Assembly: GCA_963783575.1 (NCBI GenBank)
Contig: CAWAOD010000009.1
Coordinates: forward strand, 160,001 to 224,000
Origin: an uncultured Spirochaetota bacterium
GTDB taxonomy: Bacteria > Spirochaetota > Brevinematia > Brevinematales > JAOACQ01
Reading direction: 5' to 3'
DNA: 64,000 nt
Shown: positions 4,749 to 13,903 of the stretch, in pieces
Layout: each line of letters opens with the position of its first letter
Position numbering within the stretch: position 1 is the stretch's first letter
Program-made: the position numbers and the translations under genes
The notes under the pieces: model-generated
What the model was told of the DNA's origin: nothing
Databases searched by the model: none
Seen by the model: only the letters and a program-made list of their open reading frames with translations

Positions 4749-5561
4749 ATGAGTAAAGCAGAGATTTATTATTTTTCAGGCACTGGAAATTCATTATACG
4801 CAGCTAAAGAACTGCAAAGGAATATTCCTGAATGCGAATTAATCCCCATATTGGGAGCTTTAAGAAATTCTACTTTTGAATCAAAAGCGGAAATAGCCGG
4901 ATTTGTTTTACCGAATTATGTCCGTACAATACCCGGGCCAGTCCGGAAATTCCTTAAAAAAATAAATTTAAAGACCGCATCCTATGTATTTGCGGTTGTT
5001 ACTGCGGGCGGTTCCCCGTCAACAGTCTGCAAAGACATAAACAAAATTATCTCAGGAAAAGGAAAACAGCTGAATGCCTATTTTGAACTGGAGATGCCCA
5101 ATAATTCCTTAATTTTTCATGGGGAAGATACCCCTGAAGAAATAAAAAGACTGGTAACGGGAGCAGGGAAAAAACTGGGATCCATACAAAAAACAATTTT
5201 GAACCGGGGAAAAAACATTGATCAAAGTTCTGAAAGCAATTCCATAAAGGAAAAAATCCTATTTTCAATATTGGGTAAGCTGGTAGTTCCGCTATTCGGC
5301 GAAAAAATGATCTCTTTTTACTCCGATTCCAATTGCAGCAGTTGTGGAATTTGCGAAAAAGTCTGTTTATCGGGCAAGATTGCCATTAAAGACAGAAAGC
5401 CTGAATGGCAGAAAAATGTTAAGTGCATGTACTGTTTTGCCTGTATCAATTTCTGCCCTGTTCAATCCATTCAAATAAAAAAATCAAAAACAAATGTTCT
5501 TGGAAGGTATCATCATCCGGAGATAACAGCAAAGGAAATTGCCGGGCAAAAATTAATTTGA
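4749..5561 (+). CDS. EFR1-family flavodoxin/ferredoxin fusion
   Basis: YFSGTGNS flavodoxin motif plus two CxxCxxCxxxC 4Fe-4S motifs. Confidence 0.92.
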   Translation: MSKAEIYYFSGTGNSLYAAKELQRNIPECELIPILGALRNSTFESKAEIAGFVLPNYVRTIPGPVRKFLKKINLKTASYVFAVVTAGGSPSTVCKDINKIISGKGKQLNAYFELEMPNNSLIFHGEDTPEEIKRLVTGAGKKLGSIQKTILNRGKNIDQSSESNSIKEKILFSILGKLVVPLFGEKMISFYSDSNCSSCGICEKVCLSGKIAIKDRKPEWQKNVKCMYCFACINFCPVQSIQIKKSKTNVLGRYHHPEITAKEIAGQKLI

Positions 5562-5581
5562 ATTCATCCAAAGATAATTTA

Positions 5582-6037
5582 TTATACTAATTCTTTTAAT
5601 TGCAGGTAAGTAATTCTTGGGAAAAAACCATATTTACTATAAAATTTAAAAACCGATTCATGCCCCTCTGCAACAGCGACCATGATTTTTGTACAGTTAT
5701 TGGCTTTTAACCAATTTATGCTATTTTCAACCAATTTCCCGCCATAACCGTATTTTCTATATTCCTGATCAATGAATAATGAATCTATCTCGCCAACATT
5801 TTTTTCAATTGTTGAAATACAATAGCCAACCGGAGTATTATTATTAACAATCAACTCAATTCTAATATTACCGCTATCCAGTTCATCAAACTTTTCACAT
5901 CTTTTTTCAAAAGTAAAACTTTTATAGTGCCCCTTAAAAAATTTGGAATCTTTTAAATGAATTTCATTTAATTTTTCCCAAAGAGCTTTTATTTCACCAA
6001 TTTTTATTTTTTCAATAACTTTGAATTCACAATTCAT
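5582..6037 (-). CDS. GNAT family N-acetyltransferase
   Basis: GEIDSLFIDQEYRKYGYGGKL motif A; FYSKYGF. Confidence 0.9.
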   Translation of the reverse strand: MNCEFKVIEKIKIGEIKALWEKLNEIHLKDSKFFKGHYKSFTFEKRCEKFDELDSGNIRIELIVNNNTPVGYCISTIEKNVGEIDSLFIDQEYRKYGYGGKLVENSINWLKANNCTKIMVAVAEGHESVFKFYSKYGFFPRITYLQLKELV

Positions 6038-6218
6038 AAAAAATATCCTTTTTATTTGATCATAATTACCCGGCAATACTTTACAATAAATAAATATAAA
6101 AATCAAATCCTGAAATTAAGAATTAAAGTTGCCGGATTAAATTATTTTATCAACTATTGACAAACATTCTTTTATATGTTACACTATTAGTATAATTAAT
6201 TATATTATAGGTGTAAAT

Positions 6219-6857
6219 ATGGGAAGAAAAGAAAGAACCATTGAACAGAAAAAAATCTGTGAAAAAGATATTTTAGATGCTGCCGAACGGAGGCTTTTCC
6301 AATCGGGTTTTGAAAATACTACAATGGAAGAGATTGCAATCGAAGCAAACTATACAAAGCGTTCTCTTTATTTCTATTTCAAAAGCAAGGAAGAAATCTA
6401 TCTTAGCATTATTACCCGGGGTTTCAAGATATTAAATATAAGCATAGAAGTTGTCAACAGAGCTTCTGTGGCAAAAGGAATAGAAAAGGTCAGGAAACTT
6501 GGCGAAGCTTATTACGCTTTTTACAAGCAATATACAAACTATTTTCGCTTGATCGCAGAATACGAAAACCGTGAACAGGATTTTTCAGGAGATAATCCAA
6601 TCATAAGCGAATGCTATACCGAAGGTGAAAAAAGCATCGGCATGCTGAAGACTGCTCTTGAGGAAGGAATCCTTGACGGCAGTATTCGAAACGGGATCGA
6701 TGTAAAAATGATGGCCTTTCTTTTATGGGGGCAGTTCAACGGAGTCATATCAATCATAGCTCACAAAAAACATTACATAGAAGCTTATTACCGTAAAAAT
6801 GACGAAGAAATAATGCGGGTTTTATCGGATATAATTGAAAGAATTCTTAAACAATAG
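6219..6857 (+). CDS. TetR/AcrR family regulator
   Basis: HTH TTMEEIAIEANYTKRSLYFYFKSKEEIY. Confidence 0.93.
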   Translation: MGRKERTIEQKKICEKDILDAAERRLFQSGFENTTMEEIAIEANYTKRSLYFYFKSKEEIYLSIITRGFKILNISIEVVNRASVAKGIEKVRKLGEAYYAFYKQYTNYFRLIAEYENREQDFSGDNPIISECYTEGEKSIGMLKTALEEGILDGSIRNGIDVKMMAFLLWGQFNGVISIIAHKKHYIEAYYRKNDEEIMRVLSDIIERILKQ

Positions 6858-6865
6858 AGGAAAAT

Positions 6866-7680
6866 ATGATTAGAATTACATTGTTAATTATTCTATTTAA
6901 CTTATTCTCGTCATTTACTTTTACACAATCTGTAGAAAAAGGATTTTTCTTATACCAGGGATTGGCCGGATTGGATTATCCAATGGGAATTCAAAGTGAT
7001 ACGGCTGTTTATTACCGTATTCCCACAGGTGAAAGTGAAGAGATGCTTTTTAAGACCGCTCATACGGATATTGGAATTGAAAATTGGCTTACCCCAACGG
7101 ATAATTTTCTGGCCCTATATTGCAAACTTGAGCCCATCGCATTCTTTGATCTTGTGTTCCGTAGCGGTTATGACGGTATTTTTAATTTTACCGGCGTGGG
7201 TTTTCAGCCGGTAAGCGGGCCCGGCGAGCCTTATGATTCGGAATCGGCTGTGAAACTGCCCATGAAAACCGGTCCGGATTATGGGGAATGATTACCCCGG
7301 AATTAAAAATCAAATTCTGGAATATCATTCTCACACATTCGTTTACAATTAACTATTTCAATATGTTTTATCCCGGATATTTTATTGAATTCCATACCGA
7401 TTCAATCCTTCATGGTGAAGATATTAATCTGCAAAACGATACATACGGATTTTACGAATTTAACCGGCAATTACTATTGGGTTTTAATCACTATTATCTC
7501 TATGTACCAAGCACCGGATATGCCTCGCAGAGACTTTCCGCAGCGGCGGTCTTTAAACCCGGGCTGAGTTGTTTTTATGATGCTTTCCTTGCTGCTCTTG
7601 CCGGCAGTTATCTTCAGGATCACAGCTACACCGGCAAGTTTTTCCTGCTTATTCAGGGTGGCTTTACTATAAAGTTATAA
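6866..7680 (+). CDS. Exported (possibly outer-membrane beta-rich) protein, split by a one-base deletion near 7260
   Basis: Signal peptide in ORF 6866-7291; adding one C in CTGCCCATG gives a continuous ...KLPHENRSGLWGMITPELKIKF... into ORF 7288-7680, which ends GGFTIKL. Confidence 0.6.
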
Positions 7681-7699
7681 AGGAGGTGGTATGATAAAA

Positions 7700-7870
7700 A
7701 AGGTTGAAAAATAAAAGAGCCCGCATCAAAATAGATGAGGGCTCTGAATAGGACAAAGATCGAATCAATTTGTGGGGATAAACCCCGTTAGGAGTATGAT
7801 CGAATCCTTGTCCGAACCACCATTTTGAGGATAAACCTCGTATTGGAGTATGGTAATTTTTCAACCGGAT
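7700..7870 (+). ncRNA. Putative IS110 bridge RNA (5' hairpin plus two related internal loops)
   Basis: Closing stem GGTTGAAAAAT/ATTTTTCAACC; hairpin AGAGCCCGCATC/GATGAGGGCTCT; two parallel loops ATC-AATTTGT-GGGG ATAAA CCCC-GTTAGGAGTAT-GAT and ACC-ACCATTTT-GAGG ATAAA CCTC-GTATTGGAGTAT-GGT. Confidence 0.75.
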
Positions 7871-7922
7871 TAATATACCACTAAAAGATTCAGGCCTCCC
7901 AAATAAATTAGGGAGAAAAACG

Positions 7923-8933
7923 ATGGACGCAAAAAAGTGGATCGGAATTGATATCCACAAAAAGCAAATTACCGTTTGCATTATTATAGAAAACGGTAAA
8001 AAATCAATCAAGCAATATGAGAGAAATGAAAAAGAATTAGCGGAATTTGAGAAAGAGATTGACAAAGAAACGATAATCGGGATTGAATCGACAAACTGGA
8101 CATGGGATTTAATCAAACGGTTAAAAGATAAAGTAAAAGATGCGGTTATTTTCAATACTATTGATTTAAAAAGATTAATGGATCGATTTAAAAAAACAGA
8201 CAAGGAAGATGCAGAAAGAATGGCGATTATATTACAAAGATTTGAAAAAGAAGAGCTAAGTACCTGTCAGATAAGAAGCGACGAAGACGCTGAAATAAGA
8301 GGATTATTATCTGTGAGGGAAGAAATGGTTAGCAATAAGAAAAGCTATAAGACAAAGATAATAGCGATGATGGAGTATTGGGGGATTAAAACCGGAGACA
8401 AAATGTTCAACAATTTTGAAAAGAACACAAACTGGGTCAAAGAACAAAACATACCTGAGAGTATAAAGAGAGCCGTAATCCAGATGTATGTTATGTTAGA
8501 AAATCTCAAAGAAGACATTAAGGTACTGGATAAAGAAACAGAAGCCTTAAGCATAAAGAGACCCGGATATAATGAGATTAAAGAATTAACGGGAATAGGC
8601 ACAACAACCGGCGTATACATCATAACGAAGGTAGGCAATATAGACCGCTTTAGTACCTCAAAAAAATTTGTATCATATATGGGATTAGCACCAAGAGTTA
8701 GTGAAAGTGACGGAAAAGGAACAAATGGTCAAATTACACGAAAAGTAGACGGTGCTTTTTTAAGGGTCATAGTACAAGCAGCCTGGGTTCGTGTGAGATA
8801 TGATAAAGAAATGAAATCGTTTTATGAGAATATTCGAACAAGAAGAGGAAAACAAAAAGCGATCATTGCAGTAGCGAGAAAAATTATTGTGGAAGTATAT
8901 TATAAGTTGTTGAATCTGAAATCTGAGGCTTGA
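7923..8933 (+). CDS. IS110 family transposase/bridge recombinase
   Basis: IGIDIHK, GIEST and KTDKEDA (DEDD RuvC-like domain); GIGTTTG HhH; YMGLAPRVSESDG catalytic Ser loop; KAIIAVARK. Confidence 0.96.
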   Translation: MDAKKWIGIDIHKKQITVCIIIENGKKSIKQYERNEKELAEFEKEIDKETIIGIESTNWTWDLIKRLKDKVKDAVIFNTIDLKRLMDRFKKTDKEDAERMAIILQRFEKEELSTCQIRSDEDAEIRGLLSVREEMVSNKKSYKTKIIAMMEYWGIKTGDKMFNNFEKNTNWVKEQNIPESIKRAVIQMYVMLENLKEDIKVLDKETEALSIKRPGYNEIKELTGIGTTTGVYIITKVGNIDRFSTSKKFVSYMGLAPRVSESDGKGTNGQITRKVDGAFLRVIVQAAWVRVRYDKEMKSFYENIRTRRGKQKAIIAVARKIIVEVYYKLLNLKSEA

Positions 8934-8948
8934 ATCTTAAAATAAAAC

Positions 8949-8977
8949 TTGACAAATTACATAGGAGAAATTATGAT
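8949..8977 (+). promoter_or_regulatory. Hybrid sigma70 promoter at the IS right junction
   Basis: TTGACA (8949-8954, IS-encoded) - 17 bp - TATGAT (8972-8977, target-encoded). Confidence 0.65.
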
Positions 8978-10058
8978 GCAAATATTAAAAAATATAATCC
9001 TGATGGGAATTATCTTTGTATTCCCGATTGCCGGTTACAATATAACAAATAATCAAGGAGAGAACAAAATGTACAATTTGAATCCGGAAATGGAGAAAAT
9101 GCTTTTTTACGGCACTCTTGCGCCAAGTTCTCACAATGCTCAAATGTGGAAAGTCCGGATAACAGGGCCTTTGGAAATAGAGGTTTTTCTAGATACAAAC
9201 CGGCTTCTGCCACAGGTTGATCCAGATAATAGAGAAGCATTCATCTCAATCGGCACATTCCTTGAGAATCTCGGCGAAGCCGCATTTTCCCTGGGTTATC
9301 GCGCAAATATCGATATTCAAGAGCATCCGATGGATGAACGTGCTGCTATCATTCAATTCATTAAAGATGATGCGCTTCCTCCTGACAATTCTTATCTTTC
9401 TAATATTTTGTCCCGCCATACAATCCGGACAGCATATTTGACAAATGAATTGACAATTTCCGAAATAAATTATTTTTTGTCTTCAGACCAATATCATGTT
9501 TTTTACTATTCGTTTAGTTCAGATGAGGGAAAGTACCTTTCACAAAACCTGATTAAAGCCAACCGTCAGCAGATGGCCGATGACAATAAAGAGCTTGAAC
9601 TTTCTGAATGGTTCCGTTTTTCACAAAAGGATATTGATCAGAAAAAAGATGGTATGGTACTGGATATTCAGGGTATCGGCGGCTGGATTGCAGGAATATT
9701 CTTCAATAAAGATACCGTTATGTCAAAGATCTTCCGCGAACAGGGTGTTGAAATGGTTAAAAATGCCGTTGGCAATTGCAGCGGGTATTTGGTTGTCACG
9801 GCTGAAGGCACTTCACCGAAAGACTGGATTTCAGCCGGTATGCTTTCCGAAAAGATTTGGCTGATGGCGGCATCGAAAAAGATCGCAATTCAACCCATGA
9901 GCCAATTGCTTGAAGAAATCCCCTGGAAGCTTGAAATTATGCAGAAAATCGGCTTAAATAAACCGATAGCCATGCTCTTCAGGGTTGGTTATATAAAGGT
10001 TTATGGAAAAGGTTTAACCAGACGACGCGATTTGAAGGATTTTATTATTAATCAGTAA
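8973..10058 (+). CDS. Acg-type FMN-dependent nitroreductase family protein (alternative start at 9069)
   Basis: LAPSSHNAQMW, LPQVDPDNRE, RHTIR, QPMSQLLE and FRVGY motifs; SD AGGAG before 8973 and AAGGAG before 9069. Confidence 0.88.
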   Translation: MMQILKNIILMGIIFVFPIAGYNITNNQGENKMYNLNPEMEKMLFYGTLAPSSHNAQMWKVRITGPLEIEVFLDTNRLLPQVDPDNREAFISIGTFLENLGEAAFSLGYRANIDIQEHPMDERAAIIQFIKDDALPPDNSYLSNILSRHTIRTAYLTNELTISEINYFLSSDQYHVFYYSFSSDEGKYLSQNLIKANRQQMADDNKELELSEWFRFSQKDIDQKKDGMVLDIQGIGGWIAGIFFNKDTVMSKIFREQGVEMVKNAVGNCSGYLVVTAEGTSPKDWISAGMLSEKIWLMAASKKIAIQPMSQLLEEIPWKLEIMQKIGLNKPIAMLFRVGYIKVYGKGLTRRRDLKDFIINQ

Positions 10059-10144
10059 TTCTATCTAAGCCAATTTTTATCTCAAACTAAGTCTTGAACT
10101 CAATACTCAAGGTATAACTCAACCGAAGAAATTTCTAATTATTA

Positions 10145-10199
10145 TTGACAAACTGTCATCTTATATGTTATACTTATTATAGACTGACAGTCGGTCTAT
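10145..10199 (+). promoter_or_regulatory. Promoter and palindromic TetR operator
   Basis: TTGACA...TATACT followed by the imperfect palindrome ATAGACTGACAGTCGGTCTAT (10179-10199). Confidence 0.7.
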
Positions 10200-10219
10200 A
10201 ATATAAGAGGTAAACTGAA

Positions 10220-10885
10220 TTGACAAGAATATTAAAGGAACCGGAAGAAAGACGGACGGAAATCCTTGATTCAGCCGAGGAATTATTCCAGATTAAAGGT
10301 TATGAAGCAGCCACAACGGGCGATATTATAAAAAAAGCCGGAATCGCACGCGGCACTTTATATTATTATTTCAAATCCAAAGACGAGATTATGGATGCGG
10401 TGATTGAAAGAAGAATTGAACGGCAGATTCAGAATTTGAAGACAATTATCAACGGACAAAAAATAAACGCTCTTGAAAAGATCAAAAAAGTCCTTTATCA
10501 AAACAGTATAATAAACAATGAAAACGAGGAAATGCTGGATTATCTCCACCAGCCAGAAAACAGCGCCATGCATCAAAAAACACTTGTTGCAGCTGTCAGA
10601 AATTCCGCGCCGGTTCTTGCGGAGATAATAAACCAGGGGAATTCCGAAAAAATATTTCAAGCCGGGTATCCGCTTGAACTGGCTGAGTTTTTACTGGCGG
10701 GGATGAATTTTCTGTTCGATCCTTCAATTTTTCAATGGAGCCGGGAAGAATACATAAAAAGAATGCACACTCTTGCGGATATTCTGGAAAAGGTTCTGGG
10801 GGCGGAAAAAGGCAGCTTTGATTTTATGAAATCATTTGCTGAAAAAGAAGGCTCACAATACAGGAATAAAAAGGAAAGGGACTAA
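10220..10885 (+). CDS. TetR/AcrR family regulator
   Basis: HTH AGIARGTLYYYFKSKDEIM; paralog of 1601-2236 (KxPEERRxEILD N-terminus). Confidence 0.95.
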   Translation: MTRILKEPEERRTEILDSAEELFQIKGYEAATTGDIIKKAGIARGTLYYYFKSKDEIMDAVIERRIERQIQNLKTIINGQKINALEKIKKVLYQNSIINNENEEMLDYLHQPENSAMHQKTLVAAVRNSAPVLAEIINQGNSEKIFQAGYPLELAEFLLAGMNFLFDPSIFQWSREEYIKRMHTLADILEKVLGAEKGSFDFMKSFAEKEGSQYRNKKERD

Positions 10886-10909
10886 TAAAATCGTGTAAGG
10901 AGTTTTGAT

Positions 10910-11680
10910 ATGTTCGAAATTCTTAGACAGTTGTTAATGAATCCGGAAACCAAAGAATCTCCGGACTATCTTGAAAAAGATGGGAAAGAATGGTTTCAGG
11001 ATAAAAACGGAACAGTTTTTCCGGTAGAAGACGGAATCGTTCGCTTTCTGTCCGGAAAAGAATTATCCGGAAATAATAAGAATTTTCAGAAAATGTATGA
11101 TGGATTTTCAGGGCTTTATGATGGATTCACACGGTTTTTTGCCTTAATAAGCGGCGGCGAGAAACAAAGACTTATGGAATATCTTTCGGAACTGGAAATA
11201 AAAGACGGCGATAAAGTAATTGAAATATCCATAGGTACCGGGCGAAATATTAAATATTTGAACCCAAAGGCAGAATATTTTGGCGCTGACATTTCTTTAG
11301 GGATGCTTAAAAAGTGCAGAAAAAATATGTTAAAAATAAACCGCAATATCGGACTTATTCAGGCGGAAGCGGAAAACCTTCATCTCCGGGACAATTCTTT
11401 CAATGTTGTTTTTTCAGCCGGAGGATTCAATTATTTTAACGACAGGGAAAAGGCGGTCCTGGAAATGCTGCGGATTGCAAAACCCGGGACAAAATTGATG
11501 ATTTCCGATGAGCCTGAAAAAATTATGAAATCATTCGAAAAAATCCCTTTTGCCGGGAAAAACTTTAAGCTTGATGATTCAAAAAAACCTGAGGATTTTA
11601 TCCCGGAATATTGCCGGGATGTACAATACAGGGAAATCTGCAAAGGCGCGTTGTATGTTTTAACATTCATCAAGCCATAA
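10910..11680 (+). CDS. Class I SAM-dependent methyltransferase (UbiE-like) with Trm112-like N-terminus
   Basis: VIEISIGTG, GADISLGML and EMLRIAKPG motifs; N-terminal LMNPETK...FPVEDGIVRF. Confidence 0.88.
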   Translation: MFEILRQLLMNPETKESPDYLEKDGKEWFQDKNGTVFPVEDGIVRFLSGKELSGNNKNFQKMYDGFSGLYDGFTRFFALISGGEKQRLMEYLSELEIKDGDKVIEISIGTGRNIKYLNPKAEYFGADISLGMLKKCRKNMLKINRNIGLIQAEAENLHLRDNSFNVVFSAGGFNYFNDREKAVLEMLRIAKPGTKLMISDEPEKIMKSFEKIPFAGKNFKLDDSKKPEDFIPEYCRDVQYREICKGALYVLTFIKP

Positions 11681-11887
11681 TACTGTCAAACTATAATACA
11701 AATTAATAATTGACAAAGATACTATATCAAGAATAGGAAAATTATATGAAAGTACTGGTCGTTGGTGCTGGTGTAATAGGTTCAATCTACGGATGGGCAC
11801 TTTCAGAAGCCGGTCATTCCGTAACACATTTAGTGCGCCCGGGTAGATCTAAGTTATTTACAAATGGTATTTCAATTGATATGATGG

Positions 11888-13903
<2,016 letters not shown>

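Follow-up and report, generated by a model that had tools for sequence, protein, structure and literature searches.

A predicted bridge RNA of an IS110-family element with guides that appear programmed for ribosome-binding sites

Introduction

Bridge RNA-directed recombination has been known since 2024 from IS621 and ISCro4 (10.1101/2024.01.24.577089, PMC11208160, PMC11208158), and roles of the IS621 residues are given in the accessible part of PMC11208158. For IS1111-family RNAs a reverse guide order has been published, and a few IS1111 relatives are described there with an upstream non-coding region (PMC11187229, as far as its accessible text goes). The locus analysed here lies in the window, the whole 64,000-nucleotide stretch of DNA examined, and its nearest named records are Brevinematales/Brevinematia sequences. 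It was compared with these systems by the architecture of its ends, the predicted RNA, covariation of the RNA with the flanking DNA and the placement of its transposase (tnp). Coordinates are listed in Table 1.

Materials and methods

Homolog loci were drawn from 61 + 401 genomes, metagenomes (best 80 of 526), viral contigs and plasmids. An RNA model (R1) was built from seven close homologs; of 67 chosen sources, 17 carried a match to it on the expected strand, and 64 distant metagenome and viral loci carried none. The rebuilt model (R2) yielded 38 matches among 80 chosen sources, with one place matched in the window and the six element copies matched in the genome. Seven of the 38 were dropped (one antisense match, two located behind tnp, and four that were misaligned or lacked ends), as were five near-copies or mis-anchored rows, leaving a covariation set of 26 elements. 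A rule based on the -10 and -35 boxes placed the DNA ends of these elements, with a left offset of normally 5 nt; within the 26 the offset was 2 nt in four elements and 6 nt in two, and eight junction offsets of these two sizes were set by hand. The exceptions were taken from multi-copy flanks (L121, L126, L115, L141) or by analogy (L120, L122).

Arms were read from the model-fitted alignment, and covariation P values were obtained from 100,000 permutations with scores that tolerate a shift of 1–2 nt. The 60-protein tree was computed without IS621 and ISEc11, and long branches were flagged. IS1111 references were elements typed by architecture (L144, L197) and IS5708 (L146).

Results

Table 1. 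Features of the element and its predicted RNA, in window coordinates
Feature	Position	Strand	Evidence or role
IS110-family element, 1,282 bp (one core counted)	7686–8967	+	Six copies in the genome, identity 98.7–100%; flank divergence
Host Shine-Dalgarno AGGAG (target left half), its last two bases being core AG (7684–7685)	7681–7685	+	Left junction, 6/6 copies; upstream flanks diverge
Left end, comprising GTGGT (donor right half) and TATGAT (-10 box, 7690–7695)	7686–7695	+	
Right end: -35 box TTGACA (8949–8954), CATA repeat arm, AGGAG (8963–8967)	8949–8967	+	
Target right half AAATT, then ATG (8973–8975) of a nitroreductase-family gene	8968–8975	+	
IS110 recombinase, 336 aa; D10, E55, D93, D96, S262	7923–8933	+	PF01548 and PF02371 above cut-off
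Predicted bridge RNA (ends predicted)	7702–7866	+	Fold; models R1 and R2
Enclosing stem of predicted RNA, 11 bp	7702–7712/7856–7866	+	
5' hairpin of predicted RNA	7716–7745	+	
Target stem-loop of predicted RNA	7751–7813	+	
Donor stem-loop of predicted RNA	7816–7854	+	
Target loop 5' arm AATTT(GT)	7767–7773	+	Predicted to pair with top strand right of core (spacer from Shine-Dalgarno to ATG)
Target loop 3' arm (TT)AGGAG	7788–7794	+	Identical to target left half; predicted to pair with bottom strand
Donor loop 5' arm ACCAT(TT)	7819–7825	+	Predicted to pair with core and with GTGGT of the left end
Donor loop 3' arm (AT)TGGAG	7842–7848	+	Equals right end ATAGGAG with one mismatch

The junctions were fixed by the six copies, whose flanks diverge beyond the AGGAG/GTGGT joint at the left end and beyond the last base of CATAGGAG at the right end. 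Because both junctions of the window element share the five nucleotides AGGAG, this element by itself does not fix the position of the 2-nt core; the core was narrowed to AG using the relatives L020, L029, L165, L115 and L116, and on the strand that does not encode the transposase it is CT. The AGGAG at the right end is the donor left half plus core and is at the same time the rebuilt Shine-Dalgarno sequence. Long terminal inverted repeats are absent, and the only subterminal repeat is of 4 bp, with TATG in the left end and CATA in the right end as its arms. The element is thus multi-copy with a short shared core and lacks long terminal inverted repeats, as is usual in the IS110 family, and its recombinase carries both family domains, the DEDD residues and the catalytic Ser. 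The five catalytic residues are invariant across 28 homologs, and the recombinase profile aligns these motifs with the catalytic motifs of IS621 and ISCro4.

Joining the left end to the right end would give TTGACA-17-TATGAT (spacing computed), so the junction promoter of the IS110 family is present here as geometry. No circle junction was found in the assembly, and contigs of four DNA sequencing runs, which cover the element in part, contained neither a circle joint nor an empty site.

Intact tnp frames were found only in the window copy and the C16 copy. The other four of the six copies (G000 C11, C12, C14) carry stops or frameshifts in tnp with unchanged loop arms, and both frameshifted copies are broken at the same tnp codon (about 87–91). 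Between 7685 and 7922 two positions vary among the six copies, neither of them inside a loop arm. One copy (G000:C12:19699-22234) is split by a 2.5-kb insert with ORFs of 521 aa and 255 aa that by eye resemble IS21-family IstA/IstB. A second IS110 family of about 24% identity occurs in the genome (G000 C16:220561, C13:280053, C5:70334); one of its copies lies about 1.4 kb behind the C16 copy, and R2 has no match to it. The window also holds a group II intron reverse transcriptase/maturase (RVT_1 and GIIM) at 12075–13436 on the minus strand.

The region 7690–7922 folds at -73 kcal/mol (z -6.9), a stability reached by none of 200 shuffles. The predicted structure is a 5' hairpin followed by two stem-loops with internal loops, the two-internal-loop layout of a bridge RNA, and ATAAA hairpin loops cap both stem-loops (7778–7782 and 7831–7835). 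Counted by hand, AATTTGT pairs with the top-strand AGAAATT at 6/7 positions, ACCATTT pairs with AGGTGGT through five Watson-Crick and two U-G pairs, and the TGGAG donor arm pairs at 4/5. Among 20,000 dinucleotide shuffles of 7748–7857, 0.11% gave matches of this kind in both loops and in the same order. Since either loop alone matched in 7–9% of these shuffles, the window locus by itself is modest evidence, and the case is carried by covariation among homologs. The structure score was 0.574, against 0.195 when shuffled and at most 0.116 when slid. Two-sided changes were seen at 24/27 RNA pairs on the model-fitted alignment and at 4/27 on the unfitted alignment of seven sequences. Base 7819, the first of the donor 5' arm, pairs with 7851 in the RNA stem as G-C in 5/7 close homologs and as A-U in two. 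An Rfam scan of 5000–12000 gave no match.

Fold energies of the sense and antisense strands do not differ (-63.7 and -63.6), so the assignment of the RNA strand rests on geometry and the promoter. The stop of the upstream gene lies 4 nt ahead of the left junction in the window, and read-through from that gene could supply the RNA, a supply reported for IS621 in the accessible text of PMC13626964. At 7691–7714 (plus strand) the displaced host Shine-Dalgarno sequence faces an ATG of the element at 5 nt; this opens a frame of 7 codons across the 5' side of the RNA closing stem (5–14 codons in close homologs), which may be due to chance in A/T-rich DNA.

All four loop arms follow the DNA of their own element across the covariation set, on both strands of target and donor, as expected of a bridge RNA. 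At 168/182 positions (permuted mean 89.5) the target 3' arm has the base of the 7-nt flank left of the insertion, at 107/110 (22 elements; 82.8 permuted) the donor 3' arm has that of the final 5 nt in the right end, and at 94/126 (21 elements; 50.9 permuted) the target 5' arm complements the right flank; no permutation scored as high in any of the three. The weakest signal is that of the donor 5' arm, which complements the left end, wobble allowed, at 112/130 (98.9 permuted; one permutation as high). The window itself scored 5/7, 4/5, 5/6 and 5/5 for target 3', donor 3', target 5' and donor 5' arms, respectively. Kin are not independent, and the P values are therefore overstated; the signal is still present in a subset of 17 more distant lineages (target 3' 111/119, donor 3' 73/75, target 5' 70/90, donor 5' 71/85; worst P 5e-4). 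Arms identical to the flank include GGGGACG (L129), GTAAGCG (L006) and GAGAATG (L187), and more than a dozen different targets are followed by one loop, which amounts to natural reprogramming data.

One core base does not vary: on the top strand it is G in 26/26 elements (AG 18, CG 7, TG 1) and corresponds to the C of CT, a count that depends on junction placement. The bases after the target 3' arm, which correspond to the handshake position, equal the first two left-end bases in 15/26 elements and in 0/6 of the closest, the window included; this count too depends on where the junctions are placed.

These results confirm what the original prediction observed and support its interpretation in part. 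Its loop words occur where it had put them (AATTTGT at 7767–7773, AGGAG at 7790–7794, ACCATTT at 7819–7825, TGGAG at 7844–7848, and the two ATAAA loops), and its reading of loop 1 as target and loop 2 as donor of a bridge RNA has registers that agree with the covarying homologs. The proposed CT core on the strand opposite the transposase was borne out by covariation of the 26 elements, and loop covariation with target and donor, whose absence the prediction had named in advance as refuting it, is present in all four arms.

Two other registers were rejected. A donor register ACCACC at 7816–7821 matches 6/6, and its bases form the donor stem; homologs have ACCGCC there with ATGGT donors. Shifted outwards by one base to the IS621 register, the target 5' arm gave 11/30 by hand count against 19/30. 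As a side observation, L058 and L129 share the target arm GGGGACG and the donor arm AGACG, but in L058 the RNA follows tnp and in L129 it precedes it. Their proteins lie on separate branches, a hint that the RNA module may have moved.

All six copies are inserted between AGGAG and an ATG located 5–7 nt further on (spacers 5, 5, 6, 7, 6 and 5 nt), before an ORF of 151–474 aa, and the element is co-oriented with the host gene. In the genome 744 of 6,550 AGGAG sites are so placed, which gives a chance of about 2e-6 for six of six. Relatives with a target arm ending in GGAG behave alike, with ATG 5–7 nt on in 10/10 (G001), 5/5 (G223) and 4/5 (G251) copies; the fifth G251 copy has ATG at 3 and 8 nt. 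The contig of one sequencing run held an additional right junction of the same form. The right end terminates in AGGAG, so that a ribosome-binding site is left to the host gene. A scan for terminator-like sites inside the element found none. Shine-Dalgarno targeting is the main biology that the original prediction missed, and a literature search, mostly of open papers, found none on a bridge RNA targeting such sites.

The two target arms contribute unequally in the six copies. The 3' arm matches AGGAG in 6/6, and its two 5' bases match at only 3/12 positions. By these site counts the AGGAG arm does most of the predicted targeting of the window element and the AATTT arm is weak. This raises the possibility that AGGAG alone is recognised, the association with ATG coming entirely from selection against insertions elsewhere; insertions that rebuild a ribosome-binding site should be the least harmful. 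The 5' arm matches at 19/30 positions, where 12.5 would be expected judging by other ribosome-binding sites (P 0.02), a value inflated by the copy that served to pick the register; when this window copy is left out the match is 14/25 and not significant (P 0.13). Within the family, however, covariation of the 5' arm is strong (94/126, as above), and recognition of AGGAG alone is considered unlikely.

A start codon read by the RNA together with the Shine-Dalgarno sequence, so that ATG is part of the programmed target, has its support mostly in relatives. CAT is found in the 5' target arm of L002, L003, L004, L032, L120, L121, L126 and L170. In G251, T-ATG stands in exact register at a 5-nt spacer in 4/4 copies with the arm CATATTT, against 48/286 such sites (about 8e-4, post hoc); start-codon reading looks real in G251, judged from these sites. 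T precedes ATG in 10/10 G001 sites (background 239/465) and in 6/6 sites here (background 0.59). The window arm, however, contains no CAT and its spacers vary, and ATG is in register in 1/5 G223 copies and 0/3 close homologs, with only AT in register in 5/10 G001 copies. Such reading by the window element is rated improbable.

Targeting through the donor loop alone, in which AGGAG sites are hit as half-matches resembling the donor of the element itself and the target loop is not needed, would draw on the fact that both 3' arms end in GGAG and that AGGAG is common to target and donor. Donor-only recognition has been reported for IS621 (10.64898/2026.08.31.748434, in its accessible part), and T stands at +5 in all six targets, as in the donor (background 0.49; P about 0.013, post hoc). 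L115, L141 and L116, however, have an AGGAG donor and other target arms; they sit at the sequence of their own arm and not at AGGAG, which is evidence against targeting by the donor loop alone. In L003, L004, L032, L033 and L005 the target arm agrees with the left flank at all 7 nt, and AGGAG is matched 5/5 by the window target arm and 4/5 by the donor arm. Donor-only targeting is accordingly held to be very improbable. That the loops are plain regulatory hairpins with chance matches, as the single-loop shuffle rate and the empty Rfam scan might suggest, is refuted within the limits of the covariation data by four-arm covariation and by structure conserved at about 25% protein identity, and its probability is practically negligible.

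Several further observations were made at the target sites. The right junction at 8949–8977 (plus strand) itself forms TTGACA-17-TATGAT (11/12, the best site), with a -10 box that overlaps the host ATG; a second AGGAG (9056–9060) precedes an in-frame ATG, and the hybrid promoter could drive a shorter nitroreductase. In G001 (L155–L164) G stands at +1 in all four copies with a 7-nt spacer and in 0/6 with 5–6 nt; the guide has C at this position. Pairing of the RNA TATG that follows AGGAG with a looped-out start codon was tried and rejected, with no covariation in G001, G223 and G251. L153, an IS110 element of a Rhizobium plasmid with downstream RNA, has ends nearly identical to those of the window element, AAGGAG/GTGGC-ATG and CAT-TGGAG (336–349 and 1801–1820); located 7 nt before an ATG, it is possibly an independent Shine-Dalgarno-targeting lineage. 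L198 is an IS110-family element of a Thermus plasmid inside a repeat-spacer array.

The RNA lies in the left end, as in the IS621 type. The bottom-strand arm before the top-strand arm, the order of the IS621 type, was not found (controls P 0.06 and 0.77, not significant); the top-strand arm comes first, as in strict IS1111 elements. Two other features of strict IS1111 elements are missing: in place of subterminal inverted repeats of 11–13 bp the element has 4 bp (10 bp in its relative L005), and in place of a long non-coding region downstream of tnp it has 34 nt, with 237 nt upstream. By these sequence features the element belongs to the broad IS110 family and is a strict member of neither the IS110 (IS621-type) nor the IS1111 group.

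In the protein tree the elements that share the RNA, ISLin1 included, form a weak clade (83/91). It sits in a 93/94 group with the IS1111-type, ISSso6 and ISHvo9 branches, ISEc21 lying apart; the window transposase is outside the 100/100 clade of three IS1111-type references and shares only the wider 93/94 group with them. The IS1111-type reference L144 has the reverse order in both loops. A survey of 37 loci for same-strand copies of the right end placed them upstream of tnp in ISLin1, ISHvo9, L142, L151, L046, L067, L087, L137, L134, L131 and L125, and downstream in L144, IS5708, L148, L153, L058, L035, L036, L047 and L077; ten loci had no match (ISEc21 among them), and the remainder look like chance. 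With same-strand donor arms both upstream and downstream of tnp, polarity follows lineage and not the position of the RNA. The order that the original prediction called inverted is real, given the four-arm covariation, but not the sign of divergence it was taken for, being a lineage trait already described for IS1111 and seen also in L144, ISLin1 and ISHvo9. The literature search found no paper showing the reverse order for an upstream RNA.

Discussion

The segment 7702–7866 is, with high confidence on the sequence evidence, a bridge RNA programmed for ribosome-binding sites, and its element stands on the IS1111 side of the IS110 family. Circularisation, as IS621, ISEc11 and ISEc21 suggest, would join CAT-AGGAG to GTGGT-ATG, and the junction would place its promoter, in the geometry seen in the two ends, ahead of RNA and transposase. 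The donor loop would then read both strands of this junction and the target loop both strands of the chromosomal site, as covariation indicates. Pairing is expected between each 3' arm and the bottom strand to the left of the AG core, and between each 5' arm and the top strand to the right of that core, and the DEDD/Ser recombinase would exchange strands at the core, to judge from the IS621 structures. A target 3' arm AGGAG combined with a loose preference of the 5' arm for A/T-rich spacers would bring the element down in Shine-Dalgarno sites, where its right end would leave the host gene a ribosome-binding site at unchanged spacing, as the copies do. The ATG after every copy probably reflects the A/T-rich preference together with survival of harmless insertions, and direct reading of ATG is likely in some relatives.

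A wider reading, doubtful at present, is a spirochaete lineage of bridge recombinases with a general 'gene-start' guide. It would consist of a Shine-Dalgarno arm and a spacer arm (with the start codon in some members), tolerate 5–7 nt and do without the handshake pairs of IS621. Co-oriented landing, a rebuilt ribosome-binding site and the lack of an evident terminator would make it a mobile RNA-programmed modifier of gene starts, with the C of the core fixed and the T free, unlike IS621. If such a guide exists, hundreds of genes are possible targets, and the -35 box can pair with T-ATG-A of the start region. Hitting and rebuilding ribosome-binding sites would be a low-cost way to spread through a genome. 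The analysis extends bridge-RNA targeting to an uncharacterised clade that includes ISLin1. The set of tools could be enlarged by members with different core rules and with donor arms that are shorter; with its loose target the window element would be a poor tool at present.

The element resembles IS621 and ISCro4 in its left-end RNA, the order of 5' hairpin, target loop and donor loop, the junction promoter, the D-E-D-D and Ser residues and a core that reads CT on one strand. With the IS621 RNA (PMC11208160, supplement) it shares the layout arm-U-hairpin-G-arm and 3' arms that end in AG. It differs in its guide polarity, which is opposite relative to the transposase, in its Shine-Dalgarno target and in the invariant core base, C in the 26 elements where the accessible literature has T kept in IS621 relatives; the protein match is distant (profile E 1.7e-19). 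The RNA of about 165 nt against 177 nt, and the protein of 336 aa against the 328-residue IS621 chain, do not support the description as compact. The guides are short in part only. Donor arms are about 2 nt shorter than in IS621 (5+2 against 7+2 nt in the 5' arm; 8 against 10 nt from donor hairpin to core AG), whereas the target 3' arm is 7 nt in the family (168/182, as above) and has degenerated to 5 here. By our count the arms span about 20–24 DNA positions; a survey of 32,190 bridge RNAs gives 12–40 positions with a median of 25 (10.64898/2026.10.21.760802, accessible part), and its 86 bridge-RNA models may already include the window clade. The accessible portions of 10.1101/2025.10.25.684509 and 10.1101/2024.06.21.599552 hold nothing specific to the window element.

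With the IS1111 family (ISEc11, ISPa11, ISKpn4; PMC11187229, accessible text) the element shares the top-strand match before the bottom-strand match, a distance of 10 nt between CAT and ATG at the junction (extensions of 5+5 here and 3+7 bp as published) and a protein length within 330–350 aa. It differs in the upstream RNA, downstream in that family, in the shorter inverted repeat (4 bp against 11–13) and in the motif, GLAPRVSESDG here against GL-P----S(t)G.

The closest named element is ISLin1 of Leptospira (L141; 27–28% identity), a member of the same RNA-sharing clade on whose RNA the literature search found no paper. It is alike in upstream RNA, polarity and AGGAG right end, and differs in a target arm that ends in CATAG and in copies that lie away from ribosome-binding sites. 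ISHvo9 (L143) likewise has a same-strand copy of its right end upstream. IS900, IS901 and IS116 of actinomycetes also insert between ribosome-binding site and start codon. They lie on a long IS110 branch and are antisense to the host gene, whereas the window element is co-oriented with it.
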